A stretch of 40,708 nt of DNA from positions 9,263 to 49,970 of the forward strand of contig CAYIDV010000001.1 in assembly GCA_964362315.1 (NCBI GenBank). The letters run 5' to 3'. This document shows, piece by piece, positions 5,404 through 40,708 of this stretch; within the stretch, counting starts at the first letter, position 1; every line of letters starts with the position of its first letter. The notes beneath the pieces are model-generated. The model worked only from the letters and a program-made list of their open reading frames with translations. It was not told the origin of the DNA and ran no database searches. This DNA is from an uncultured Candidatus Saccharibacteria bacterium. GTDB lineage: Bacteria > Patescibacteriota > Minisyncoccia > Minisyncoccales > Staskawiczbacteraceae. Position numbers and translations under genes: made by a program.

Positions 5404-6339
5404 TTAAATACTGGAAACCAAAACGGCTAAGGCTGTTTCTGGTTCTATTTTACCTGTTTTAATATCTAAGTCAATCTGAAAAATAGCACTGTAGATTTTC
5501 TTTAATTCTTCAAAAGAAAACTGTTGGCAAACGAAGTAATTTTTTTTGACTACAAAGGGATGCAATCCGCTCTTTTTAACAATAGAGGCGTACATAAAAC
5601 CTTTCTCTGCCAATTCTTTTATTAAAAGTAAATTTCTGAACTGATATGTCAGCATGGAGAGCAAATACATAGAATTGTCGCCGTTATCCAAATGTTTTTG
5701 TAAAAATTCTATTGCCTGTTTTTTGTTTTTTGTCGCCAAAGCGTCAATAGTTTTAAAAATATCTGTTTCAATGTTTGGTTTCACTAACAGCTCAATGTCA
5801 TCTTTTTTAATAATTAGTCCCTGTTTAAAATTTGCCAATTTTTTAATTTCATTGGAAGCTCTCCACAAATCATTGCCAATATATGTCAAAAAAAGATTCA
5901 AAGCGTCTAAATTTAACTTTACTTTGTAATTTTCTGTTTCTTTTAAAGCCCACTGTTTTAAGCTTTTAAAATCTAATAAATTGAAATTTTGTGATTTGCA
6001 TTCTTTTATTAAGGTTTTAAATAATTTTAACCTTTGGTCAACTTCCTGGTTTTCATAAACAATGATAACGTCTTTTAAGGATTGTAGTTTTTCAATTTCT
6101 TCTGTAAAATTTTCTTGAAAACTTTTATTCAAAAAAAGGTTTTTTAATATTACCAGTTTCTTTTCAACAAACATTGGAGAAATTTTAAAATTATTGTAAA
6201 AGTCGGAGAAATCTGTAGTGTTGGCATCTATGTAAATTAAATTCAATCCACTTTTATTGGAATTTTTGTAATGGATTATAATCTCCTCTAATTTCTGCTT
6301 TGACCTGTACGAATCAGGCCCATATAAAAATATAATCAT
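5404..6339 (-). CDS. holA: DNA polymerase III subunit delta
   Basis: The 311-aa product has the N-terminus IIFLYGPDSYRSKQKLEEI and a C-terminal helical domain typical of HolA. This is a recognition-level call. Confidence 0.7.
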   Translation of the reverse strand: MIIFLYGPDSYRSKQKLEEIIIHYKNSNKSGLNLIYIDANTTDFSDFYNNFKISPMFVEKKLVILKNLFLNKSFQENFTEEIEKLQSLKDVIIVYENQEVDQRLKLFKTLIKECKSQNFNLLDFKSLKQWALKETENYKVKLNLDALNLFLTYIGNDLWRASNEIKKLANFKQGLIIKKDDIELLVKPNIETDIFKTIDALATKNKKQAIEFLQKHLDNGDNSMYLLSMLTYQFRNLLLIKELAEKGFMYASIVKKSGLHPFVVKKNYFVCQQFSFEELKKIYSAIFQIDLDIKTGKIEPETALAVLVSSI

Positions 6340-6356
6340 AAATTAACTTCTAACCA

Positions 6357-6390
6357 TCTTACAACTTTCACAGCTGTGAAAGTTGTAAGA
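6357..6390. repeat. Perfect 34-nt palindrome TCTTACAACTTTCACAG|CTGTGAAAGTTGTAAGA
   Basis: All 17 pairs were checked by hand. It lies 3 nt downstream of the stop of the 6393-6923 gene. The same sequence is embedded in the palindrome at 6961-7010. Confidence 0.95.
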
Positions 6391-6392
6391 CT

Positions 6393-6923
6393 TTAAATTT
6401 CTTCTATTAAAAGTATCTTTACGTAATTATCCAAACTGTATAATTGAAGTAATTTTTCTGTTTTTTCTGAAACATCATAGGGAGTTATCCAAACGCTTTG
6501 CTGAAACATTTTATAACCTAAATTTATTAGAATACTTCTCATTAAATCCCTCTTTTTCCTGTTTTTAGAGGGCATATCAAAAATCAACATTATCCACTTC
6601 TTATCTTTTCTTTTATTGTTTTTGTTTTCAATAAAACTTGCTTTTAATGCTTTAGATAAGCCGTATTTAGTAATAATAAAACCTTTTTTATTTTCTAAGT
6701 TCTTAGCTTTTATATAGTTCTTTCTCTTTAAATAGTAAATAAAATTATTAAACTCCCTCCTCCCCATTTCTCTTTGGTATTTTCCAATAATTGGGTCTAC
6801 ATCACCCATTAAAATGCTTTTTTGTTTGTATTTGTTGCTTAAAACAAAATCTATGACATTATCTGCCTTTTCTAAGAACTTATATAAATCCCATAAAAAT
6901 TGATCGGTAACTCTCAATTTCAT
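6393..6923 (-). CDS. wHTH + Cas2-like (PaaX-like) small DNA-binding protein, copy 1
   Basis: The product is 176 aa. The C-terminal half, WIMLIFDMPSKNRKKRDLMRSILINLGYKMFQQSVWITP, follows the Cas2/PaaX-middle-domain pattern (beta strand-FD-x-P ... R..L...L...G....Q.SVW). The N-terminal half (FIYYLKRKNYIKAK...ITKYGLSKA) looks like a winged helix. A paralog lies at 35701-36228. Confidence 0.6.
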   Translation of the reverse strand: MKLRVTDQFLWDLYKFLEKADNVIDFVLSNKYKQKSILMGDVDPIIGKYQREMGRREFNNFIYYLKRKNYIKAKNLENKKGFIITKYGLSKALKASFIENKNNKRKDKKWIMLIFDMPSKNRKKRDLMRSILINLGYKMFQQSVWITPYDVSEKTEKLLQLYSLDNYVKILLIEEI

Positions 6924-6960
6924 TATTATCTATTATACCAACAATGAGCGCTCTTATATA

Positions 6961-7010
6961 TCACACCATCTTACAACTTTCACAGCTGTGAAAGTTGTAA
7001 GATGGTGTGA
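6961..7010. repeat. Perfect 50-nt palindrome with core TCACAGCTGTGA
   Basis: TCACACCATCTTACAACTTTCACAG|CTGTGAAAGTTGTAAGATGGTGTGA lies 38 nt upstream of the start of 6393-6923. A TATAAT box sits between the palindrome and the gene on the minus strand. Confidence 0.95.
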
Positions 7011-7121
7011 GAACCTAGAGAATCATGAAGGCAGAATTATATTATAAATAGGTAACAATGAATACTAATTAATTACTAATGGTGGAGATAGTAAGTATTA
7101 CATCACACAATATACAGAGTA

Positions 7122-7997
7122 CTATAATTTTTGGCATTGGGGACAGAAAAAGGCACTTCTGCCGCCGAATTTCAATCTTTTAATTATTGTTTTGCAACGA
7201 AAACATTTTTGCCCTTCTCTTTTATAAGCTTTTCTTTCATCGTCAAAATTGCCTTTTTTGCCTTCAACATTTCTATAATCAGAAAAACTTTCTCCGCCCA
7301 ACTCAATTCCTTTATGTAAAACCCTTTTTATGGATTGATAAAGTAAATTTAATTCTTTTTGGGTTAATTTTGAAGTTTCTTTTTGAGGATGAATTTTTGC
7401 CCACCATAAAGCTTCACTGGCATAAATGTTGCCAACTCCGGAAATTACTTCTTGGTTCATTATCACTTGCTTTATTTTTCCTTTTTTATTTTTCAATCTT
7501 TTCTTGAACTTTTCCAATGTAAAACCTTTTTCCAACGGCTCTGGCCCTAAATTTTTAAATTCTTTTAAATTTAATAAATCCTTTGTCTTCCATAGCTCCA
7601 CTTTGGCAAATTTTCTCAAGTCAGACAAGGCAATCTGTTGCCCGTTATCCAAAAAAAACATTATGTGTATGAATAAATTTATTTTTTCATCTAAGGGACC
7701 TCTTTTTACTGGTTTCCAACTTCCAGCTTCCAACTTCCAGTTTCCCACCAAGAGATGCCCCGTCATTTTTTGGTGAACCAAAAGAGAATAGCCGTCAGAT
7801 AAATCAAAAATAATATTTTTTGCCCGGCGCCAGACTTTTTTTATTTCTTTGCCTTTTAATTCTTTTTTAAAAATTTTAAAATCCTTTGGTTTTTTAATTG
7901 TCTTTACCCAATCTGACCAGACATCAACAAAGGTCCTTTTGAGGACCTTTGTATTTAAACCGTTTACCGTCGTCTCTACCTCGGGAAGTTCGGGCAT
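7122..7997 (-). CDS. mutM: Formamidopyrimidine-DNA glycosylase
   Basis: The 291-aa product has the N-terminus MPELPEVE and a C-terminal zinc finger, CFRCKTIIKRLKFGGRSAFFCPQCQ. Confidence 0.93.
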   Translation of the reverse strand: MPELPEVETTVNGLNTKVLKRTFVDVWSDWVKTIKKPKDFKIFKKELKGKEIKKVWRRAKNIIFDLSDGYSLLVHQKMTGHLLVGNWKLEAGSWKPVKRGPLDEKINLFIHIMFFLDNGQQIALSDLRKFAKVELWKTKDLLNLKEFKNLGPEPLEKGFTLEKFKKRLKNKKGKIKQVIMNQEVISGVGNIYASEALWWAKIHPQKETSKLTQKELNLLYQSIKRVLHKGIELGGESFSDYRNVEGKKGNFDDERKAYKREGQKCFRCKTIIKRLKFGGRSAFFCPQCQKL

Positions 7998-8001
7998 AAT
8001 A

Positions 8002-8541
8002 TTAAACCTTCTTTTTTTTGGGGCTCTTTTTACTTACCTGACTTTTTAAGTTTAAAATTTCTTTGTCTTTATTTTTTAATTGCCCCTGCAAAACTTCTAA
8101 TTCTCCGGCTACCTTTTCAAGCTCTATTGTCCTGTTTTTTACTTTTTGTTCCAAAACATTAATTATTTCTTCCAATGCTTTAGTTCTCAATTGGATATTT
8201 TTATCAAGACTATCAATTTTACTTTTATTTTCCTCAAATTCTTCGGCTATTTTATTAAAAGTTTTAGCCAGTTGCCCCAACTCGTCTTTGGTTTCCAAGT
8301 TAAATCTGCTGTCTAAGTTTCCTTTGCTTAAGTAATCGGCCTCTTTTAATAATTTTTTAACAGGAAAAGCCAGTCTCTGGCCAACGGCAAAACCAAATAA
8401 AAACAGAAAGGCGGTAAGAGGTATAAGGATAATATAAAAATTGGGACCTAAAAGTTCGTAGTATATTGAGACAAATACCACAATAATAAAGAGTCCGGTG
8501 AGAATAATGGGATAGGCTACTTTTGAAGAAACGCTGGGCAT
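8002..8541 (-). CDS. Membrane-anchored HAMP-domain / coiled-coil protein
   Basis: The 179-aa product has two N-terminal hydrophobic helices, then a HAMP-like segment (PVKKLLKEADYLSKGNLDSRFNLETKDELGQLAKTFNKIAEEF), then coiled coil. Confidence 0.6.
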   Translation of the reverse strand: MPSVSSKVAYPIILTGLFIIVVFVSIYYELLGPNFYIILIPLTAFLFLFGFAVGQRLAFPVKKLLKEADYLSKGNLDSRFNLETKDELGQLAKTFNKIAEEFEENKSKIDSLDKNIQLRTKALEEIINVLEQKVKNRTIELEKVAGELEVLQGQLKNKDKEILNLKSQVSKKSPKKKKV

Positions 8542-8563
8542 GTATTTATCATATCAAATGTAA

Positions 8564-9448
8564 CTAAAAAACAATAGTGGATAATCTGTCAACAAGGCTA
8601 TTGAATCCTAATTGATAAAAGACGTTTTTTACTTTCTGCTGGTCAAAATTTCCAAACTTGCATAACTCCAAATCAAAATCTAAGGGAACGTCTTTTTTAG
8701 TTTGGACCAATTGCAAGGACAAAAAAGCGCTTTGTTTATTGTTTTTCAACGCCTCTTTGATTTTCGGCTTTAAAACAGCCGTGTCGGTTGCCAGTTCTGA
8801 GTAAAGGTTTTCAATTCTGCCGAATTTTTGGATTAATTCGGCCGCCGTTTTTTTTCCAATTCCTGGAACACCGGGCACATTGTCTGAAGCGTCTCCGGTC
8901 AGAGCCTTAAAATCGTTCATTTGTGAAGGTTTTACGCCGAATCTTTCCAAAACTTTTTCTTCATCATATAAAACACTGTCTTTTATGCCTTTACCTAAGG
9001 TATATACTTTTATTTTTTCATCAACAAGCTGAAGATTATCCAAATCTCCGCTTAAAATAAAAACTTCTGCCTCGCCTTTAACTTTGTTGGCGATAGTAGC
9101 AATCAAATCATCGGCTTCAAAACCGTCTTTTTCAAAAATAGGCACCTTAAATGATTCTAAAACTTCTTTCATTATTGGTATTTGAGAAACTATTCCTTCT
9201 GGCGTTTGGGGCCTGTGTATTTTATATTCTTTAAACTCTTGGTGACGAAAAGTCGGCTTTTCGGTATCAAAACAAGCAACAATGTAGTTTGCTTTTAAGT
9301 CTTTTATCGCCTTGAATAGAGTTAATAAAAAACCATATACTGCGCCCGTCGGCTGCCCCTTTTTATTTGTCAGCGGCGGCAAAGCATGAAAAGCCCTATA
9401 TAGTAAAGAATGACAGTCTATGATAATAAGTCTCTTATCTGTGGCCAT
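8564..9448 (-). CDS. Stand-alone 5'-3' exonuclease (Pol I N-terminal domain / FEN-like)
   Basis: The 294-aa product begins LIIIDCHSLLYRAFHALPPL. It also carries GFEADD, LSGDLD, and the H3TH motif LTGDASDNVPGVPGIGKKTA. Confidence 0.9.
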   Translation of the reverse strand: MATDKRLIIIDCHSLLYRAFHALPPLTNKKGQPTGAVYGFLLTLFKAIKDLKANYIVACFDTEKPTFRHQEFKEYKIHRPQTPEGIVSQIPIMKEVLESFKVPIFEKDGFEADDLIATIANKVKGEAEVFILSGDLDNLQLVDEKIKVYTLGKGIKDSVLYDEEKVLERFGVKPSQMNDFKALTGDASDNVPGVPGIGKKTAAELIQKFGRIENLYSELATDTAVLKPKIKEALKNNKQSAFLSLQLVQTKKDVPLDFDLELCKFGNFDQQKVKNVFYQLGFNSLVDRLSTIVF

Positions 9449-10594: not shown

Positions 10595-11653
10595 TTAATC
10601 TTGGACGCAAAAAATATTTGCTTAATTCCTTTAGAAAGCGAGCCAGAAAGCTTAACAAGCTGCTTGGCTCTTTTTTATACTTTAAAAGAATTGGGCAAAA
10701 ATGCAAATTTAATTATTGAAAACTTCCCAGAAAAGCTTAACTTTTTGATTCCTTCGTTGGGTTTTATATCTTCTCCTAAAAATTTTGTGATTTCTATCCC
10801 CAAAGATACTGCTGATGTCTCGCAGATATATTATGAAAAAAACGATGACAATTTAAAAATACATTTAACGGTAAATAAGGGCAAAATTAAGAAAGAAAAT
10901 GTTAATTTTTACTTCCAAGAGCCAAAACCAGACCTGATAATAACACTGGGGGTAAAAGATTTTAAAAAACATTTGGAAAATAAACTGGATTCCTTTGGAT
11001 TTCTTTTGGACGCTCCCATAATAAACATAGACAATAACCAAGACAACATAAAATTTGGAAAAATAAATTTAGTCCAAGAAAAATCAATTTCTCAAATAAC
11101 TTTGAACCTCATAAAATCCGTTGACGATAACTTGATTAAAAAAAGCGTGGCTAATTGTCTTTTGGCAGGGCTAACTCTTTACTACGAGGACTTTAAAAGC
11201 AAAAAAACAACGCCGGAAATTTTTGAAATGGCAGCTGATCTAATAAAAAAGGGTGCCGAACACCAACAAATAGTTGAAGGCCTGAATCAAACCAGCGAAA
11301 AAGAAAGTGACTTTTTGAGAGAAATTTTAAAACAATCAAAAACCGGAGATGAGCTTTCTGTTGCTGTTTTAGATTCTGACCAATTTGAAAATTTTGGTGA
11401 AACTCAAGCGCAAGTGGCAATGGAGAAATTAAAAGTAATTGGCATTAAAAATGACTTTCTGGTGCTGTGGCCAAGCCACGCTTCAGAACCTGTGGTCAAA
11501 GGTTTATTTTATTCAAAAAAACCAGACTTACTAAGTAAAATTGCCAAAAACCATCAAGTCATTCTTAAAAAAGACGGGTTATTTTTATCAATACCTGAAT
11601 CAGATGTTAATTTAGCCAAAGAAAAAATTATAAAAACTATAATCAACGAATAA
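10568..11653 (+). CDS. DHH-family phosphoesterase-like protein with degenerate catalytic motifs
   Basis: At 361 aa the overall layout resembles NrnA/DHH proteins. The DHH and GGGH motifs are not recognisable, and the site normally holding DHH-type residues reads LESEPESLTS. Confidence 0.4.
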   Translation: MEEANQTKQLILDAKNICLIPLESEPESLTSCLALFYTLKELGKNANLIIENFPEKLNFLIPSLGFISSPKNFVISIPKDTADVSQIYYEKNDDNLKIHLTVNKGKIKKENVNFYFQEPKPDLIITLGVKDFKKHLENKLDSFGFLLDAPIINIDNNQDNIKFGKINLVQEKSISQITLNLIKSVDDNLIKKSVANCLLAGLTLYYEDFKSKKTTPEIFEMAADLIKKGAEHQQIVEGLNQTSEKESDFLREILKQSKTGDELSVAVLDSDQFENFGETQAQVAMEKLKVIGIKNDFLVLWPSHASEPVVKGLFYSKKPDLLSKIAKNHQVILKKDGLFLSIPESDVNLAKEKIIKTIINE

Positions 11654-11702: not shown

Positions 11703-13022
11703 GTGACAGAAACAGCAGAAAAAGTACTAGGCAAAGTAACCATCAGCCAAGAAATTGTTAAAGACATTAAAAAAAATGTCAGCAACATTACTGGCTTTGA
11801 AAAAAAGATTAGAGACTATAGCAGGCAAGACACAACTGATTTTTTGAGCGCCATTTTATTTGGCGCCATTAACCTTGAGTCATCTGACGTTCACATTGAA
11901 CCCCAAGAAGACAGGGTAAGATTAAGAATAAGGATTGATGGCATCTTGCGCGACGTTATTTTTTTTGAAGAAAGCACTTATAACTCATTGCTTTCAAGGC
12001 TTAAGCTGCTATCTAATATTAAATTAAACATCTCAGAAAAGCCCCAGGACGGTAGGTTTACCATTGTTGTAGAAGATTTATTTATTGAAATAAGAACTTC
12101 CAGTTTGCCGTCTGAAAAAGGCGAATCCATTGTCATGAGGGTGTTAAACCCTAAAAATTTAATGGCCCTTGACACCCTGGGGTTAAGAAATGATGTGTAC
12201 GCCTTGTTAGAAAAAGAACTGGCAAAGCCCAATGGCATGATTGCGGTTGCCGGTCCCACTGGCTCTGGAAAAACCACCACCCTTTATGCTTTTTTAATGA
12301 AGATACAAAATCCGGGCATTAAAATTATTACCATTGAAGACCCGATTGAATATCATTTAACCGGAGTTTCCCAAACTCAGGTGGCTCCTGAAAAAGGATA
12401 CGACTTTTCAGAAGGACTGGCTTCTATTGTCCGCCAGGACCCAGATGTTATTTTAGTTGGTGAAATCAGGGATTCAAAAACCGCTAAAATAGCTCTGCAG
12501 GCGGCCTTAACTGGCCATTTAGTGCTTACCACCATTCATACCAACGATGCTGCAGGCACCATCCCCAGATTGGTTGATTTGGGGGCCAGTGTTTCATCCA
12601 TCGCTCCTGCTTTAAAAATGATTGTCGGCGAGAGGTTAATTAGAAAAGTATGCCAAGAGTGTTCAGTATTTGCCAAGCCCTCCCCAAAAGAACTTTTGGA
12701 GATAAAAAAAGGGTTAAAAAACGTTTCCAGCCAAACAAGCATCCCCAAAGACTTAGATAAAATAAAAATCGCCAGAGTAAAAGAAAAAATGTGCAAAACC
12801 TGCAGTTTTACCGGCTACAAAGGAAGAAAAGGGTTATTTGAAGTAATGATTGTTGACCCAAAAATGGAAAAATTTATTCTAACCAATCCGCCGGTGTCTG
12901 CCATAAAAAAAATGGCTGTCAAAAATGGGATGATTACCATGTACCAATCGGGTTTAATTGAAGTAGTATCGGGCCAAACCACCTTAGATGAGGTTAAAAG
13001 GGTAATTGAGGCAGATGAATAA
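11703..13022 (+). CDS. Type II/IV secretion / type IV pilus assembly ATPase (GspE/PilB family)
   Basis: It uses a GTG start and encodes 439 aa. Motifs are the Walker A GPTGSGKTTT, the Walker B region ILVGEIRD, the His box TGHLVLTTIHTN, and a tetracysteine motif (CQEC...CKTC). Confidence 0.9.
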   Translation: MTETAEKVLGKVTISQEIVKDIKKNVSNITGFEKKIRDYSRQDTTDFLSAILFGAINLESSDVHIEPQEDRVRLRIRIDGILRDVIFFEESTYNSLLSRLKLLSNIKLNISEKPQDGRFTIVVEDLFIEIRTSSLPSEKGESIVMRVLNPKNLMALDTLGLRNDVYALLEKELAKPNGMIAVAGPTGSGKTTTLYAFLMKIQNPGIKIITIEDPIEYHLTGVSQTQVAPEKGYDFSEGLASIVRQDPDVILVGEIRDSKTAKIALQAALTGHLVLTTIHTNDAAGTIPRLVDLGASVSSIAPALKMIVGERLIRKVCQECSVFAKPSPKELLEIKKGLKNVSSQTSIPKDLDKIKIARVKEKMCKTCSFTGYKGRKGLFEVMIVDPKMEKFILTNPPVSAIKKMAVKNGMITMYQSGLIEVVSGQTTLDEVKRVIEADE

Positions 13023-13610: not shown

Positions 13611-14621
13611 ATGAACACTATATTATCAAAAAAATCAGGTGAAAGAGATGAAATTTTAGATTCTTCTTTAAGGCCTAAAAATTGGTCAGATTATGTTGGT
13701 CAGGAAAAAATTAAGGAGAATATAAGAATAATTATTACCGCGGCAAAACAAAGAGGCCAATCCCCTGACCATTTATTGTTGTACGGAAACTCGGGACTGG
13801 GCAAAACTACACTGGCTCATTTAGTGGCTTTGGAAATGGGAAAGCAAATAAGAATAACCTCGGGACCGGCTATTGAAAGAGCTGGAGATTTGGCGGCAAT
13901 TTTAACTAATTTATCAGAAGGTGACATCTTATTCTTAGACGAAATACACAGAATCCACAAAACCGTTGAAGAATATATTTATCCGGCTATGGAAGAATAC
14001 AAATTAAATCTGATTTTGGGCAAGGGCCCGATGGCCAGGACCATGGAGCTAAAACTGCCCCATTTTACATTAGTTGGAGCCACTACCAGACCAGGGCTAT
14101 TGTCAGCTCCCCTAAGAAACCGTTTTGGCGCCACATTCGGACTTAATTTTTATAAAGCCCAAGATATTGAAAAAATCGTAGAAAGATCGGCTAATATTTT
14201 AAAAATACCAATTGATTTAGAAGCCATAAAAATAATAGCTCAAAGGTCTCGTTTTACTCCAAGAGTGGCTAATCGGCTTTTAAAAAGAATTCGCGACTTT
14301 GCCCAGGTAAAAAACATAGGTAAAATAAACAAAGAAATCGCTGAGCATGCCCTGCAATCTTTGGATGTTGATCAAATGGGGCTTGAGCCGGGCGATAGAA
14401 AAATTTTACTCACCCTTATAGAAAAATTTGGCGGCGGGCCAGTCGGCTTGCAGTCTTTAGCGGCGGCTGCCTTAGAAGAAGAAGATACTATTTTAGATAT
14501 CTATGAGCCCTATTTAATGCAATGCGGGTTTATTGAAAGGACTCCCAAGGGTAGAGTTGCCTCAAGGCTGGCTTACGAGCACTTGAGATTAAAGCAAGAC
14601 AGGCAACACAACTTAATTTAA
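13611..14621 (+). CDS. ruvB: Holliday junction DNA helicase RuvB
   Basis: The 336-aa product contains [13 protein letters not shown], the Walker [12 protein letters not shown], the Walker B LFLDEIHR, and a sensor region. Confidence 0.97.
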
Positions 14622-22838: not shown

Positions 22839-23031
22839 ACTGTGTGATTTATTTTTACACAGACGCATAATAATAAAATTAAAATTTCTGAGATTTGAAT
22901 TTTTGGTTTATTTATATTATACTAACCATATTATAATTATGAAAGAGGCAGGAATAGAAAAATACAATTTTTCTATTCCTGCCCAATTATTAGTTATATT
23001 TTTTATATATAATTCAAATATTTAGATCATG

Positions 23032-23165
23032 CCCCGTTAGAAATTTTGATAAAAATGGAAAATTAACGAGGTAAGATTTAATTTTATGAAATAATACTTA
23101 GAAATTAGTACACAAAGATTTATTTTTTTAAAAAAATAAATCTTTGCCCTAAATTTCTAACGGGG
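23032..23165. mobile_element. 134-bp MITE-like element with 15-nt terminal inverted repeats CCCCGTTAGAAATTT / AAATTTCTAACGGGG
   Basis: The arms at 23032-23046 and 23151-23165 pair perfectly. There is an internal perfect 34-nt palindrome at 23113-23146. The same termini occur inside comM (39811-39872). Confidence 0.55.
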
Positions 23166-23166
23166 T

Positions 23167-23301
23167 ATGAGCTTTACTTATAATCCCAAAAAGAAAAAAA
23201 GGAAAAAAACACACGGTTTTTTGAGTCGTAAAAAAAGCAAAACCGGTAGACGAGTTATTAAACAAAGAAGAAGAAAAGGAAGAAAAAAGCTTACTGTCTA
23301 A
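23167..23301 (+). CDS. rpmH: 50S ribosomal protein L34
   Basis: Hand translation gives MSFTYNPKKKKRKKTHGFLSRKKSKTGRRVIKQRRRKGRKKLTV*. It is too short for the ORF track, and it sits at the canonical position before rnpA. Confidence 0.9.
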   Translation: MSFTYNPKKKKRKKTHGFLSRKKSKTGRRVIKQRRRKGRKKLTV

Positions 23302-35495: not shown

Positions 35496-35605
35496 ATTTT
35501 GAATATTTATTGATTATATCATAAATTAAACAGTCAACGAGCTGTTAATATCCACAACCAAGATTCATTAACTATTTTGATACTAAGGACTATTAAGTTT
35601 CAAAT

Positions 35606-35651
35606 AAAACACTCTGCAATTCTCACAGGTGTGAGAATTGCAGAGTGTTTT
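35606..35651. repeat. 46-nt palindrome with core TCACAGGTGTGA
   Basis: AAAACACTCTGCAATTCTCACAG/GTGTGAGAATTGCAGAGTGTTTT forms 22 bp with a GG centre. It lies 50 nt downstream of the stop of 35701-36228. Confidence 0.95.
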
Positions 35652-35700
35652 ATAATTAGGGAATGCTTTAAGATTTTATAGATATTGTATTTGATTAGAG

Positions 35701-36228
35701 TCATATTTCTTCAATTAAAAATATTTTTACGTATTGGTCTAAAGAATGTAATTGCAATAATTGTTCTGTGTTTTCAGAAACATCATAAGGGGTTATCCAT
35801 ACACTTTGCTGAAACATTTTATATCCTAAATTTTTCAAAATACTTCTTAATAGATCCCTAGATTTTCTATATTTGGCAGGCATATCAAAAATTAACATTA
35901 TCCATTTACTGTCTTTCCTTTTCTTTTTCGTTTCAACTCTAAAACTTGATTTGAGAGCCTTGTCTATCCCCTTTTTAGTAATAATAATCCCTCTTTTACC
36001 CTCTAAGTTTTTAGCTTTTATATAATTTTTTCTCTTCAAATAAATTATTAATTTGTAGAATTTTTCTCTGCCGATTTGCTTAAGATATTTATATGAAATG
36101 GAATCTTTAGGGCCAAGCAAAACAGTTTTTATTGTGGGGTATGGGTAAAATTCTGGAATACTATCAACAGTTCTTTCCAAAAAATTATATAGATCCCAAA
36201 GAAATTTATCTGTAATTCTTGTTTTCAT
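35701..36228 (-). CDS. wHTH + Cas2-like (PaaX-like) small DNA-binding protein, copy 2
   Basis: The product is 175 aa. Its C-terminal 75 aa are nearly identical to copy 1 (WIMLIFDMPAKYRKSRDLLRSILKNLGYKMFQQSVWITPYDVSENTEQLLQL...). The N-terminal half is more diverged. Confidence 0.6.
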   Translation of the reverse strand: MKTRITDKFLWDLYNFLERTVDSIPEFYPYPTIKTVLLGPKDSISYKYLKQIGREKFYKLIIYLKRKNYIKAKNLEGKRGIIITKKGIDKALKSSFRVETKKKRKDSKWIMLIFDMPAKYRKSRDLLRSILKNLGYKMFQQSVWITPYDVSENTEQLLQLHSLDQYVKIFLIEEI

Positions 36229-36270
36229 TTTCTACTTAATTTTACCATTCGGCAAAATATCCCACAATAC

Positions 36271-36316
36271 AAAATACACCACAATACTCACAGCTGTGAA
36301 TATTGTGGTGTATTTT
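36271..36316. repeat. 46-nt palindrome with core TCACAGCTGTGA (one mismatch)
   Basis: AAAATACACCACAATACTCACAG|CTGTGAATATTGTGGTGTATTTT lies 43 nt upstream of the start of 35701-36228. A partial extra copy of the left arm lies at 36250-36270. Confidence 0.9.
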
Positions 36317-36379
36317 GCCGACTATTAGGCTATAAACTGACTGTCGACTTGGCTAAAGGCTATTTAACAATTTTAAATT

Positions 36380-38740: not shown

Positions 38741-40327
38741 CTACTCTTTAAGTCGGTACATTAAAGCTTCCGCCACGTGTTCTTTCTGGATATTTTCACT
38801 ATCTGCCAAATCGGCAATGGTTCTGGCTACTTTTAAAACCCTATGGTAGCCTCTAGCCGAAAGCTTTCCCGAATCCACATATCTTTTCAAAAGATTCTGA
38901 GATTCAAAATCATGCTGGCAGTATTTTTTAATTTCGGGGATGTTCATTTCTGAGTTGACCAAAATTTTATCATTTTTAAACCTTTCTTTTTGGATTTCCC
39001 TTGCCTTGGCTATTTTATTTCTTAAAACTTGGCCTTGATTTTGGCTAACTTCAGCCGCTAATTTTTCATATTTTACTGCTGGCACCTCAATAAAAATGTC
39101 TATTCTGTCCATTAGGGGTCCTGAAAGTTTTCTTTTATACATTGCCACTTGGGAACTGGTGCAAGAACAGGGATTTTCTGGACTGTTTAAGTAGCCGCAG
39201 GGACAGGGGTTGGAAGCGGCAATCAAGGTAAAACGGCTGGGAAAAGTAAGAGTGTTTTTGGCTCTGGAAACAGTGATTTTTCCGTCTTCTATGGGCTGGC
39301 GCAAAGATTCAAGGGCGTCTCGGTGGAATTCCGGAAACTCGTCTAAAAACAAAATTCCCCGATGGGCTAAAGTCATTTCTCCGGGCCTGGGCGGATTTCC
39401 CCCGCCTATTAAAGCTGCTTCAGATAAAGTGTGGTGAGGTGAGCGAAAGGGTCTGGCGTTGACCAAGATTTGATTTTCTCTTAACAATCCGGCAACGCTG
39501 TAGATTTTGGTAACTTCCAGGGATTCGGCAAAAGTTAGGGGAGGCAAAATTGAAGGCAAAGATTTTGCTAATAGACTTTTGCCTCCTCCCGGCGGCCCAA
39601 AGAAAAATAAGTTATGGGCTCCAGCAGCTGAAATCTCTAAGGCCCTTTTAGCATATTCTTGTCCCTTTATCCAGCTAATATCAACAGAGTTATCTGAATT
39701 TTCGTTGGTATTTTCAAACAAGTATTCTGAGGAAAACGGCTCAATTGGTTTTCTGTTTTCTAAATAAGCCAAGGCCTCAGTTAAAGACTCAACTCCGATT
39801 ACCTTTACTTCGTTAGAAATTTTTTCGTTAAAATTCTTACCGTTAGATTTCTCATTAAAATTTCTAACGGGGCTTACCAAACTAGCCTCCCTGGCATTTT
39901 GTTTTGGTAAAATTATTTCTTTTATTCCCAGATTTTTAGCCAACAAGGCAAAAGACAAAGCTCCTTTGACCGGCCTTAAGGTTCCATCTAAGGACAGCTC
40001 CCCCAAAAATATTTTGTCTTCTGGATTAAAATAGGTTTGTTTTGAACTCAATAAAAAAGCCAAGGCAATTGGTAAATCGTATAACGAACCTTCTTTTTTT
40101 AAGTCAGCTGGCGCCAGATTTACCAAAATTCTAAAAGGTCTTTGGTAAGGCGACAGCAATTTGGAGGTTTTGATTGCAGATTCTATTCTTTCTTTAGATT
40201 CCTCCACCGCTTTATCGGGAAGCCCCACAATAGAAAAAGAGCGCAGGCCATGAGAGACGTCAATCTCCACTTCTACGGGCCTGGCGTCTAAACCGACAAT
40301 GGCGGCTGAATATACTTTTGAGGGCAT
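38741..40327 (-). CDS. comM: YifB/ComM-family Mg-chelatase-like AAA+ ATPase
   Basis: The 528-aa product has an N-terminal Lon-protease-like domain (VEVEIDVSHGL..FSIVGLPD), the Walker A GPPGGGKS and the Walker B ILFLDEFPEF. It carries an extra NFNEKSNGKNFNEKISNE segment. Confidence 0.93.
   Translation of the reverse strand: MPSKVYSAAIVGLDARPVEVEIDVSHGLRSFSIVGLPDKAVEESKERIESAIKTSKLLSPYQRPFRILVNLAPADLKKEGSLYDLPIALAFLLSSKQTYFNPEDKIFLGELSLDGTLRPVKGALSFALLAKNLGIKEIILPKQNAREASLVSPVRNFNEKSNGKNFNEKISNEVKVIGVESLTEALAYLENRKPIEPFSSEYLFENTNENSDNSVDISWIKGQEYAKRALEISAAGAHNLFFFGPPGGGKSLLAKSLPSILPPLTFAESLEVTKIYSVAGLLRENQILVNARPFRSPHHTLSEAALIGGGNPPRPGEMTLAHRGILFLDEFPEFHRDALESLRQPIEDGKITVSRAKNTLTFPSRFTLIAASNPCPCGYLNSPENPCSCTSSQVAMYKRKLSGPLMDRIDIFIEVPAVKYEKLAAEVSQNQGQVLRNKIAKAREIQKERFKNDKILVNSEMNIPEIKKYCQHDFESQNLLKRYVDSGKLSARGYHRVLKVARTIADLADSENIQKEHVAEALMYRLKE
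39811..39872. repeat. Inverted-repeat mini-element inside the comM coding sequence
   Basis: CGTTAGAAATTTT (39811-39823) pairs with AAAATTTCTAACG (39857-39869). The right end AAATTTCTAACGGGG is identical to 23151-23165, and the left end is identical to 23036-23048. Confidence 0.8.
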
Positions 40328-40430: not shown

Positions 40431-40708
40431 TCACAATATAGCTGCCATTTTTACACGTCTTTGCGACTGGTAGCAACCGTAGCAAAGCCCAAGCGCCTGA
40501 ATGGTTTTTGTTTCTTTGCACTTGGCGCATTTGCCAATTTTGCTCCGCCGGTAGCAGGCAGGACAGACAGCTTTGCCGTCTTCAGTGCGCATTGCCACCG
40601 GCTTGACCTCTCCACATTCAGAGCACTTCTCATGGGTGGAAGGGTCTTTGCGGTAGCAGGCATGACAGACAGCTTTGCCGTCTTCAGTGCGCATTGCCAC
40701 CGGCTTGA
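40431..40708 (-). CDS. Partial (N-terminus outside the window) multi-zinc-ribbon repeat protein, GC-rich
   Basis: The reading frame is open to the window edge. It has at least 3 C-x2-C...GK-x-VC-x2-CY modules (KCSECGEVKPVAMRTEDGKAVCPACYRR). The final module, KCAKCKETKTIQALGLCYGCY, is a variant that lacks the GK-x-VC spacing. Confidence 0.6.
   Translation of the reverse strand, partial: KPVAMRTEDGKAVCHACYRKDPSTHEKCSECGEVKPVAMRTEDGKAVCPACYRRSKIGKCAKCKETKTIQALGLCYGCYQSQRRVKMAAIL
40549..40708. repeat. Tandem 102-bp (34-aa) coding repeat
   Basis: The 58 nt at 40549-40606 and at 40651-40708 differ at one position. The repeat continues to the window edge. Confidence 0.85.

Follow-up and report, generated by a model that had tools for sequence, protein, structure and literature searches.

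Selfish DNA lodged in frame within protein-coding genes has so far been treated as peculiar to Rickettsia and a few other host-associated bacteria. The Rickettsia palindromic elements described by Ogata et al. (2000, 2002; RPEs) are short palindromes that lie in frame in unrelated, functional and often essential genes (PMC10969869, PMC3733652). They occur only in Rickettsia and its relatives, with lengths of about 100-150 bp and a CGTC tag on some (PMC3733652). RPEs are the closest analogue of the insert described here, the 65-base remnant of a small mobile palindrome that lies in frame in the comM gene of a groundwater member of the Parcubacteria. We refer to the family to which it belongs as the CCCCGTTAGA family. 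Both RPEs and the CCCCGTTAGA family are in-frame palindromic repeats that give extra peptide segments, and no transposase is known for either. Compared by description only, the CCCCGTTAGA family differs in its 4-nt direct flanks at TTTA^C (the caret marks the insertion point), its sizes of 36 to about 150 nt and its distribution over many phyla of mostly uncultured bacteria. The CGTC tag of RPEs (PMC3733652) is absent from its termini.

Classical MITEs (Correia/NEMIS, ERIC, Coxiella QMITEs and cyanobacterial elements; PMC10969869, PMC5896051) resemble the family in having TIRs, target duplications and no ORF, and also in forming near-identical copy families within a genome and in occasionally lying in frame within genes. 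The CCCCGTTAGA elements bear the marks by which MITEs are recognized, namely TIRs, target duplication with empty sites, small size without an ORF and multiple near-identical copies. Unlike classical MITEs, they have interiors that are unrelated between genomes, yet the first 10 nt of their ends are common across phyla. They differ from typical DDE-moved MITEs in their asymmetric target and orientation-specific insertion, and no parent insertion sequence was found in the fetched loci. We read the comM segment, with a probability of about 0.85, as a copy, now decayed and no longer mobile, of a small palindromic element of the non-autonomous MITE type that has a 13-bp TIR beginning 5'-CCCCGTTAGA and no coding capacity. 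A full-text literature search, covering both the terminal sequence and MITEs of the phyla concerned, returned no account of the CCCCGTTAGA family, which is apparently undescribed.

The insert and its host gene have the following features, numbered within the window, by which we mean the whole 40,708-nucleotide stretch of DNA analysed.

38741..40327, minus strand: host gene comM/yifB (528 aa), which retains its three Pfam domains intact
39808..39872, minus strand: comM element, 65 nt, encoding residues 151-172, SPVRNFNEKSNGKNFNEKISNE; identified from the sequence and from empty orthologous sites
39804..39807, no strand: flanking tetranucleotide TTTA (TAAA in the comM sense), one copy of the direct repeat; the empty ortholog has a single TAAA
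39873..39876, no strand: flanking tetranucleotide CTTA (TAAG in the comM sense), second copy of the direct repeat, with 1 substitution
39811..39823, no strand: left arm of a 13-nt perfect inverted repeat, CGTTAGAAATTTT, pairing with 39857-39869
39857..39869, no strand: right arm of the 13-nt inverted repeat, AAAATTTCTAACG
39809..39847, no strand: three forward copies of the terminal arm at a 15-nt period (TRF: period 15, 2.6 copies)
39838..39872, no strand: inner complete hairpin of 35 nt at the right end of the element, TACCGTTAGATTT..AAATTTCTAACGGGG

On the plus strand, the element has one degenerate end, CTTCGTTAGA (39808-39817), and one intact end, TCTAACGGGG (39863-39872). The base after its right flank is C (39877), matching the family consensus TTTA-element-TTTA-C. 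The two arms are exact reverse complements, as the original prediction held, and the internal repetition that it reported in the encoded peptide (EKSNG / KNFNE / KISNE) arises because the terminal arm is present in three forward copies at a 15-nt period. The hairpin at the right end is the usual architecture across the family, and as a single strand the element folds with z = -4.2 against shuffles. Decay of this copy is evident in the substitutions in one terminus and one flank and in the 15-nt repeats inside. Just downstream of the insert, 9 nt are absent relative to the empty ortholog.

Only two copies occur in the window, the one in comM and a sister next to rpmH, which at one end have 21 of the first 24 nt in common.

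23032..23165, no strand: sister element in the dnaA-rpmH intergenic region, 134 nt; perfect termini CCCCGTTAGAAATTT / AAATTTCTAACGGGG; fold z = -8.4
23028..23031, no strand: left flank of the rpmH copy, CATG
23166..23169, no strand: right flank of the rpmH copy, TATG, including the rpmH start codon (23167-23169)
23114..23145, no strand: perfect palindrome of 32 nt within the rpmH copy, AAAGATTTATTTTTTT/AAAAAAATAAATCTTT

This 134-nt element adjoins the rpmH start codon and has 15-nt arms, with 13-nt inverted termini as in the comM insert. The two copies had been predicted to match at both ends. The right end of the comM element, AAATTTCTAACGGGG (39858-39872), is indeed identical to 23151-23165, and the left-end 13-mer is likewise common to both, at 23035-23047 rather than at 23036-23048 as first placed. 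The rpmH copy is missing from the close relatives L259 and L260 (DnaA 87-88% identical), and the empty site in relatives reads ..tt^ATGAGC. No joint that skips the element was found among the assembled contigs, which break in the inner palindrome. Inside the copy, no promoter or terminator signals were found, and no Rfam family matched in the whole window at gathering thresholds.

To take a census of the family, we searched for the paired termini CCCCGTTAGA...TCTAACGGGG in genome and metagenome scans, each of which yielded at least 120 stretches. Both in size and in spread the family goes far beyond what was first suggested, with the matches listed falling in the Patescibacteria, Omnitrophota, Planctomycetota, Desulfobacterota, Nitrospirota and other phyla. 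In-frame insertion of this kind is found here in free-living or episymbiotic, mostly uncultured lineages of many phyla, in a single family that can be recognized by a 10-nt end. Among the matches listed, element sizes range from 36 to 154 nt, the smallest being plain hairpins of 36-40 nt, and the arms usually pair for exactly 3 nt past the searched 10-mer to give a 13-bp repeat. The same matches contain 18 clusters of copies with similar interiors and unrelated flanks, and one contig (L024) alone carries 3 copies. Since the interiors of different genomes are unrelated, the family is defined by its ends only. Carriage by phages was considered and rejected: 4 of the 9 viral-contig matches do not pair past the 10-mer, only 1 has matching flanks, and the matches look like chance.

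Perfect 4-nt direct flanks, mostly TTTA/TAAA, border 155 of the 274 copies among the matches listed (67/132 and 88/142). Left and right flanks co-vary over at least 15 tetranucleotides, also within one family. The co-varying pairs among the matches listed include TTCA/TTCA (33) and TTGA/TTGA (17) as well as TCTA, TTTG, CTTG and others, and near-identical members of family c1 have TTTA, TTCA and TTTG flanks. On this co-variation we take the 4-nt flanks to be true target duplications.

Insertion is also orientation-specific and adjoins an asymmetric TTTA^C target. The strand of the flank is coupled to internal orientation in 24 of 26 informative copies (P = 5e-6), orientation being taken from interior-similarity clustering, which gave a clear result and replaced interior composition skew, a weak marker. 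Among the matches listed, a C follows the right flank in 129 of 231 copies, with no base preference before the left flank; where the flanks are unequal, the canonical TTTA is the left one 44 times and the right one 7 times; and TTAA and TATA flanks are almost unused (1 each of 153). The flank pair TTTA..TGAA is recurrent, sometimes within one family. We found no convincing guide position in the element that covaries with flank type (mutual information at most 0.16 bit). A symmetric DDE dimer does not predict the orientation coupling, the C after the right flank or the bias of TTTA to the left.

A putative transposase acting in trans would make a 4-nt staggered cut at this target and insert the element in one orientation. 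The most likely mover, at slightly under even odds, would be a DDE enzyme working on asymmetric ends as in piggyBac/IS1380, proposed because one end carries an extra internal arm. The piggyBac element likewise carries its additional internal arm at a single end. It too duplicates 4 bp at a T..A tetranucleotide, and its 13-bp terminal repeat likewise starts with CCC and continues with TAGAAA. Its end is CCCTAGAAAGATA (PMC5861402), and the commonest end form in our family, among the matches listed, is CCCCGTTAGAAAT. IS1380 is a prokaryotic relative that serves as an outgroup for piggyBac (PMC10813416). Unlike piggyBac, whose target is the palindromic TTAA (PMC7351741), the CCCCGTTAGA family almost never uses TTAA, and no IS1380-like transposase lies near any copy in the fetched loci. 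The resemblance of the ends is short and may serve as a lead.

The search for a mobilizing enzyme covered 120 and then 240 loci (1.7 Mb). All-against-all BLASTP of these loci revealed no recurrent transposase-like ORF family, the recurrent neighbor genes being housekeeping and pilus genes only, and no transposase was found between paired copies. No parent insertion sequence with CCCCGTTAGA-type ends emerged from the 1.7 Mb of fetched loci, either as pairs 0.5-5 kb apart or as solo termini. The best such pairs enclose ordinary genes, encoding a secreted hydrolase-like protein (L022), a Clp ATPase (L010), an ECF sigma/anti-sigma pair (L159), and a membrane protein with a methyltransferase-like gene (L192). 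Solo termini are almost absent from the fetched loci, and the ORFs adjoining them in L083 and L088 are housekeeping genes.

We consider movement as single-stranded DNA by an IS200/IS605-type HUH (Y1) or RAYT-like enzyme somewhat less likely. The hairpin would be pasted 3' of TTTA (then C), and the right "duplicate" would be the cleavage tetranucleotide of the element itself. IS608 inserts 3' of TTAC. The IS200/IS605 elements, the ORF-less PATEs and the REP/REPIN-RAYT systems resemble the CCCCGTTAGA family in their hairpins, AT-rich tetra- or pentanucleotide target, strict orientation and movement in trans. The asymmetric AT-rich target and the strict orientation (24/26 concordant) favor this route, as do the constant left and variable right flank (44 to 7), the recurrence of TTTA..TGAA even within a family and the existence of elements that are plain hairpins. 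However, these systems make no target duplication and have no whole-element TIR, whereas the CCCCGTTAGA flanks co-vary as duplications do, over many tetranucleotides and even among near-identical members, which is not expected for IS200/IS605. As in PATEs, insertion occurs in one orientation 3' of a fixed tetranucleotide, but here with a target duplication. No Y1 or TnpB ORFs of at least 100 aa recur near copies among the 240 fetched loci. REPs carry GTAG or CGTC tags and lie near RAYT genes (PMC3733652), whereas the ends here read TTTA-CCCCGTTAGA without either tag. An integron attC or dif-like site was also considered and rejected, as the GTTAGA/TCTAAC order is opposite to that of an attC site.

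Target duplication, strict orientation and an asymmetric target together fit neither the standard DDE nor the standard HUH model. More speculatively, and with considerable doubt on our part, the family may represent a cross-phylum class of hairpin transposons that had escaped recognition and has its own chemistry, combining a DDE-like true 4-nt duplication with an HUH/recombinase-like asymmetric TTTA^C target and a single orientation. Its ends and lengths would let copies persist in essential genes (SecA, DnaE, UvrA, PheT and ComM) as translated loops, and the family would then supply insertions to proteins generally in CPR bacteria, Omnitrophota and Planctomycetota.

Under our preferred reading, a MITE-type insertion, the element would have entered comM at G^TAAA (TTTA^C on the other strand), at codon 150/151, duplicating 4 nt. 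Later changes would have been two substitutions in one of the termini, a single one in a flank, and the 15-nt repeats of one arm. Empty orthologous sites bear on the original prediction that a relative of the TIR element had inserted in frame: of the 73 ComM relatives that could be scored, 68 lack additional residues at the insert point (..EAALV^KDIKIIG..), which answers the objection that orthologs might have a linker of the same length. The inserts of the window ComM and three others begin xPVR (CCC GTT AGA) and finish SNG (TCT AAC GGG). At the DNA level, the empty site reads G-TAAA-A (as in L004, ..TTGG TAAA AGAC..) and the filled site TAAA-CCCCGTTAGA...TCTAACGGGG-TAAA, so the TAAA that is single in empty genes is doubled around the inserts. 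The filled genes L001 (59 nt), L002 (131 nt) and L248 (38 nt) each have TAAA-CCCC...GGGG-TAAA, and the window copy has TAAG/TAAA. These empty sites, together with the common termini and the 4-nt flanks, uphold the predicted insertion.

Every filled gene is filled at the same comM nucleotide position, as would follow from a single ancient insertion that passed down by vertical descent, with precise loss from most lineages and divergence in the others, and with no recurrent targeting. Further in favor of that history, one clade (P0109, P0106, P0107 and P0120) has 7-11 extra residues at the site without recognizable termini, which looks like an old relic of insertion. We nevertheless regard it as improbable. 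In a neighbor-joining tree of 120 ComM proteins, the filled genes fall into four separate clades, every one of which has sister lineages with an empty site, and the nearest relatives of the window ComM (81-85% identical) have an empty site. Beyond the core, the arms of each filled gene match each other but differ by lineage (AAATTT, GGTCAG/GGTTTG, ACTTTGC), and the flanks are intact. Moreover, because the empty comM gene offers no more than 9 consensus target sites, of which 6 are compatible with the frame, recurrent insertion at this site is plausible. Hit at least four times and, in one clade, apparently decayed to plain loop sequence, the comM site shows how parasite DNA can become part of a protein in particular lineages.

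Insertion within genes is biased toward frame preservation. Among the matches listed, copies in open frames of at least 200 aa have a length of 2 modulo 3 in 31 of 32 and 9 of 9 cases, whereas other copies are distributed 90/81/62 over remainders 2/1/0, an excess with P = 1.3e-9 once the stop codons of the termini are taken into account. The termini are stop-free in two of three frames, encoding PVR...SNG or PLE...LTG, and coding copies avoid the one stop-containing frame; 40 of the 41 listed keep the reading frame. By Pfam, the host genes include those for SecA, DnaE, UvrA, PheT, indolepyruvate oxidoreductase and a radical-SAM enzyme. The family thus accounts for unusual lengths of conserved proteins in MAGs and for their "PVR...SNG" or "PLE...LTG" loops, and it provides a simple DNA signature with which to flag them. 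It is very improbable that ComM is left unaltered through removal of the insert ahead of protein maturation, either as an intervening sequence in the RNA or by protein-level excision. The strong hairpin potential would suit such removal, and the two ends of one copy at another locus exactly enclose a tRNA gene, perhaps a hint of a processing stem. Yet splicing needs no multiple of three and no avoidance of the stop-containing frame, and nothing in the window matches Rfam.

The original prediction also raised the concern that the shared 13-15-mers might arise by chance in an AT-rich genome. The window contains just four copies of the 12-mer CGTTAGAAATTT, which form two inverted pairs; allowing up to one mismatch, 0.82 matches are expected and at least 4 occurred in 0 of 100 shuffles, and the expectation for the paired-terminus pattern is 0.00. 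A low-complexity linker expansion with a chance likeness to the sequence upstream of rpmH, and no mobile DNA, can be dismissed despite the repetitive peptide and the 35% G+C of the genome, since these controls exclude chance, both window copies have empty sites, and the same termini with 4-nt direct repeats recur at hundreds of unrelated loci in many phyla.

In the host gene, the element and its 4-nt duplication together make 69 nt, a multiple of three, and the termini are stop-free in two frames, so comM stays open with 22 additional residues. Read-through of the insert would place these residues in a loop on the surface of the N-domain, and the insert is probably translated and tolerated. 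An identical 528-aa ComM is present in three separate assemblies, which argues against an assembly artefact. The protein retains the ChlI N-domain (E = 1e-41), the Mg_chelatase AAA+ domain (5.5e-91) and the C-terminal domain (1e-31), and it matches ComM in PDB 8rxd with E=1.8e-110. The insert had been placed in the linker between the Lon-like N-domain and the AAA+ domain. It does lie between the two, but it forms a loop at the C-terminal edge of the N-domain and is not in the inter-domain linker proper: residues 151-172 follow ChlI (20-144) and precede VKVIGVESLTEALAYL, which forms a conserved strand and helix, and 44 residues separate the insert from the AAA+ domain (216-422). An AF2 model built from a 22-sequence alignment is poor overall (mean pLDDT 43) and was used only for local contrast at the insert, where residues 153-171 have pLDDT <50 between elements at pLDDT ~77-83.

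The comM gene of the window encodes a protein with the expected set of three Pfam domains, which also matches the solved Legionella ComM structure 8rxd and is found in identical form in three separate assemblies. The genome belongs to the Parcubacteria (CPR), near Staskawiczbacteria, and comes from a Hainich groundwater assembly.

Features of the window.
38741-40327, minus strand: comM/yifB, 528 aa; Pfam search places ChlI at residues 20-144, Mg_chelatase at 216-422 and Mg_chelatase_C at 433-525
39808-39872, plus-strand sequence CTTCGTTAGAAATTTT..AAAATTTCTAACGGGG: element within comM (the comM copy)
23032-23165: second element, with perfect ends CCCCGTTAGAAATTT and AAATTTCTAACGGGG (the rpmH copy)

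The original prediction described the first element as an inverted-repeat mini-element, inserted in frame in comM and sharing its termini with the second. The proposed pairing of 39811-39823 with 39857-39869 is indeed a perfect 13-nt inverted repeat. The window holds four occurrences of the 12-mer CGTTAGAAATTT, as two inverted pairs, and the shared termini are not due to chance, as 0.82 occurrences are expected with at most one mismatch and four were reached in 0 of 100 shuffles. The left 13-mer is present in the rpmH copy as predicted, but at 23035-23047, one base from the predicted position.

Most ComM relatives are 505 to 509 aa long. Aligned with its orthologs, the window protein carries 22 extra residues (SPVRNFNEKSNGKNFNEKISNE) after ..EASLV, and three further ComM proteins have inserts at exactly the same alignment point: P0007 (NPVRGLTSQTFNG), P0028 (NPVRGQGDLMGAHKEQTSNG) and P0080 (44 residues, NPVR..SSNG). 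All four of these inserts start with xPVR and end with SNG, which are translated CCCGTTAGA and TCTAACGGG.

Empty and filled comM sites in the window and in fetched relatives' loci.
L004, empty: ..GCTTTGG TAAA AGAC..
L001, filled: TAAA-CCCCGTTAGAGGT..(59 nt)..ACCTCTAACGGGG-TAAA
L002, filled: ends as L001, around 131 nt
L248, filled: ends as L001, around 38 nt
Window, filled: TAAG-CCCCGTTAGAAATTT..(65 nt)..AAATTTCTAACGAAG-TAAA

The filled sites read TAAA..TAAA against a single TAAA in the empty gene of L004; therefore, the insert is flanked by a 4-nt direct repeat, the target-site duplication that the original prediction proposed to look for. The element and the 4-nt repeat together amount to a multiple of three in every filled comM. 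The predicted in-frame insertion is supported.

The comM copy is an old insertion: one terminus carries two altered bases and a flank carries one, and 9 nt (codons D-I/L-K) of the empty ortholog are absent just downstream. Its interior contains the terminal arm three times, all forward and with a period of 15 nt, which explains the internally repetitive peptide noted from the start. The insert lies past the last Pfam ChlI residue, ahead of a conserved strand and helix (VKVIGVESLTEALAYL) and 44 residues from the AAA+ domain, and the HMMER alignment of the window ComM to 8rxd is interrupted there. In an AlphaFold model built on a shallow alignment and poor overall (mean pLDDT of 43), local pLDDT is about 77 for residues 131-150, below 50 for 153-171 and 77-83 for 171-200. 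The insert is a loop bordering the N-terminal domain, near the inter-domain linker originally proposed but not identical with it.

The rpmH copy is flanked by dnaA on the minus strand and by rpmH-rnpA-yidC-jag on the plus strand. In two relatives whose DnaA is 87-88% identical, the site reads ..tt|ATGAGC.. without the element, where the window reads ..gatcATG-[134 nt]-tATGAGC. By this comparison, the rpmH copy is an insertion too, and the rpmH start codon was part of the target.

Filled comM genes fall into four separate clades of a neighbor-joining tree of 120 ComM proteins, with empty sisters for each. A clade beside P0007 has 7-11 extra residues at the site with no recognizable termini, which looks like a fully decayed relic. 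The arms within each filled comM match each other past the common core and differ between lineages (AAATTT, GGTCAG/GGTTTG and ACTTTGC), which speaks against a single ancient event and in favor of separate insertions. Only nine sites of an empty comM fit the 5-nt target consensus, six of them frame compatible, which makes it understandable that the one in a tolerant loop was used again. Near the C terminus, after QKERF, several relatives have inserts at a second hot spot. In L001, the sole relative checked there at the DNA level, the insert belongs to a related family with ends CCCRGTYAAAT...ATTTRACYGGG, whose copies (11346-11446, 12818-12877 and 13759-13862) sit in frame in comM, a LysM/M23 peptidase gene and ksgA; two of the three have the flank pair TTTA..TGAA. 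Upstream of the intact L001 comM (10001), three 54-aa ORFs at 5849-9044 with weak or faint ChlI (ComM N-terminus) matches are separated by unrelated genes, a pattern that looks like successive island integrations at the comM 5' end, each duplicating the gene start. L004 carries a 129-nt family copy (7659-7787, flanks CACA/CACA) in the intergenic region beside its comM-adjacent peptidase gene, immediately preceded by TTATCCACA, which we take to be a perfect DnaA-box consensus.

The suggested wider search for the termini, with sizes and frame tabulated, was run on genomes and metagenomes, and the family extends far beyond the window. In a scan of one genome per species, CCCCGTTAGA followed by TCTAACGGGG after 15-75 nt was present in at least 120 stretches, against about 30 chance hits for the whole genome collection by a rough estimate assuming uniform base composition. 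The 80 matches listed come from metagenome-assembled genomes of many Patescibacteria classes, including Saccharibacteria, and of Omnitrophota, Planctomycetota (Pirellulales, Phycisphaerae), Cloacimonadota, Bacteroidales, Thermodesulfobacteriota, other Deltaproteobacteria, Syntrophaceae, Nitrospirota and Nitrospinota. A metagenome scan with gaps of 76-136 nt yielded at least 120 stretches, other Hainich wells among them, while viral contigs gave nine matches in all, about half of them chance-like. Both scans combined comprise at least 274 elements of 36-154 nt. Arm pairing usually continues exactly 3 bases past the searched ends, giving a 13-bp repeat, and 155 of the 274 elements have perfect 4-nt direct flanks; the scan matches are therefore not chance. 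Element interiors are unrelated from genome to genome, and near-identical copies occupy unrelated loci within one genome or sample.

Some copies stand in unusual surroundings. Inverted identical copies bracket a secreted hydrolase-like protein gene in L022 (2046-2369 and 4832-5155, a repeat of about 325 nt that includes flanking sequence) and an ECF sigma/anti-sigma pair in L159 (7079-7186 and 9136-9243); these may be composite-like structures or inverted duplications. In a Saccharibacteria MAG (L060, 4971-5128), a tRNA-Thr(CGT) sits exactly between CCCCGTTAGA and TCTAACGGGG, followed by a duplicated tRNA 3' half that ends in the same terminus, which could represent a captured tRNA, an integration scar or a processing stem.

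We counted a copy as coding when a stop-free frame of 200 aa or more ran through it and extended 30 aa or more beyond either end. Coding copies make up 32 of 132 elements in the genome set and 9 of 142 in the metagenome set, and 31 and all 9 of these, respectively, have a length of 2 modulo 3, such that length plus 4 is divisible by three. The other 233 copies split 90/81/62 by length class. The termini carry a stop codon in one frame per strand (CCC CGT TAG; TC TAA), which alone pushes the favored class to about 56%, and at least 40 of 41 still gives P = 1.3e-9. Noncoding copies show little or no length bias, and for this reason we attribute the frame rule to a survival filter and not to design. 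Coding frames read xPVR...SNG(V/A) or TPLE...LTG, and short elements are found in genes more often than long ones (24% versus 6%). Pfam-confirmed hosts are SecA, DnaE, UvrA, PheT, an indolepyruvate oxidoreductase subunit and a radical-SAM/NirDL fusion. The matched stretch exceeds the profile by 18-25 residues in DnaE (HHH_6), UvrA (UvrA_inter) and PheT (B5), consistent with an insert inside the domain, and the insert lies just beyond the matched domains in SecA and the radical-SAM fusion. At L192 (3430-3560), a copy occupies the very start of a methyltransferase-like ORF and encodes its annotated N terminus (MNPVRSL...TSNGV); the true start codon may be downstream.

Reconstructed targets follow G|T(A>G>C)AA and show no preference past the duplication; TAAA accounts for 73 of 153, TGAA for 31, TCAA for 17 and the palindromic TTAA and TATA for 1 each. 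Read from the opposite strand, sites take the general form N-TTTA-[CCCC...GGGG]-TTTA-C, with C directly after the right flank in 129 of 231 copies. Orientation was assessed by grouping elements by interior similarity and orienting them by their interiors; outer flanks are unrelated within groups, and the copies are therefore independent insertions. Members of such a family share one flank type, with 24 further copies in agreement and 2 exceptions (P = 5e-6). Where flanks are unequal, the canonical TTTA is on the left 44 times and on the right 7 times, and the pair TTTA..TGAA occurs 15 times. At least 15 tetranucleotides show covariation between the left and right flanks, which is also seen within a single family (TTTA/TTTA five times, TTCA/TTCA and TTTG/TTTG once each) and is the signature of real target duplication. 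In many copies, a third, forward arm forms a small hairpin of its own at the right end (14 versus 4), and the window comM copy shares this architecture, in the same orientation on the plus strand.

The leading candidate for the mobilizing enzyme would be a piggyBac/IS1380-like DDE transposase, by analogy: the 13-bp repeat beginning CCC..TAGAAA resembles the piggyBac terminal repeat CCCTAGAAAGATA (PMC5861402), both duplicate 4 bp at a T..A tetranucleotide (PMC7351741), and IS1380 is a prokaryotic relative of piggyBac (PMC10813416). The main rival is that an HUH enzyme moves the family. The orientation rule is not predicted for a symmetric DDE dimer, nor are the co-varying duplications for an enzyme of the IS200/IS605 type. 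Since neither model fits and no transposase turned up in the fetched loci, whether enclosed by paired copies, beside solo ends or as a gene that recurs next to copies, we commit only to a trans-acting enzyme that would cut an asymmetric target with a 4-nt stagger and act on asymmetric ends. The family shows target duplications, unlike IS200/IS605 derivatives, and lacks the REP tag.

The family is a known kind of thing, an in-frame palindromic mobile element, and fits the structural definition of a MITE save for a known parent element. In behavior it comes closest to the Rickettsia palindromic element, the classic example of palindromic repeats that are translated within functional genes (PMC10969869, PMC3733652). 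Other examples are Coxiella MITEs (PMC5896051) and REPs that lie inside genes and carry GTAG or CGTC tags (PMC3733652). A full-text literature search for the terminal sequence and for MITEs in these phyla, of incomplete coverage and hence only absence of evidence, returned no description of the family. Several points appear to be new: the family itself, its cross-phylum breadth, a frame rule kept almost without exception in essential genes, the recurrent filling of one comM codon, and insertion that is oriented and yet duplicates its target.

The window contains further repeats. Paralogous ORFs at 6393-6923 and 35701-36228 (175-176 aa; DNA 77% identical over 300 nt), the latter with a PaaX_M/Cas2-like domain, are each bracketed by long, perfect or near-perfect palindromes built on ACAACTTTCACAGCTGTGAAAGTTGT (6353-6390 and 6965-7010; 35604-35653 and 36270-36317), which resemble operator sites or the termini of a small module that was duplicated. 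GC-rich palindromes GTGGACGTCGGGCGTCCAC and GTGGACGCCCGACGTCCAC lie 236 nt apart at 10-35 and 239-264 in AT-rich surroundings. A Cys-rich ORF at 40431-40708 (minus strand), with a weak double-zinc-ribbon match, continues past the window end and contains a 102-nt tandem repeat whose copies are 98% identical over 58 nt.
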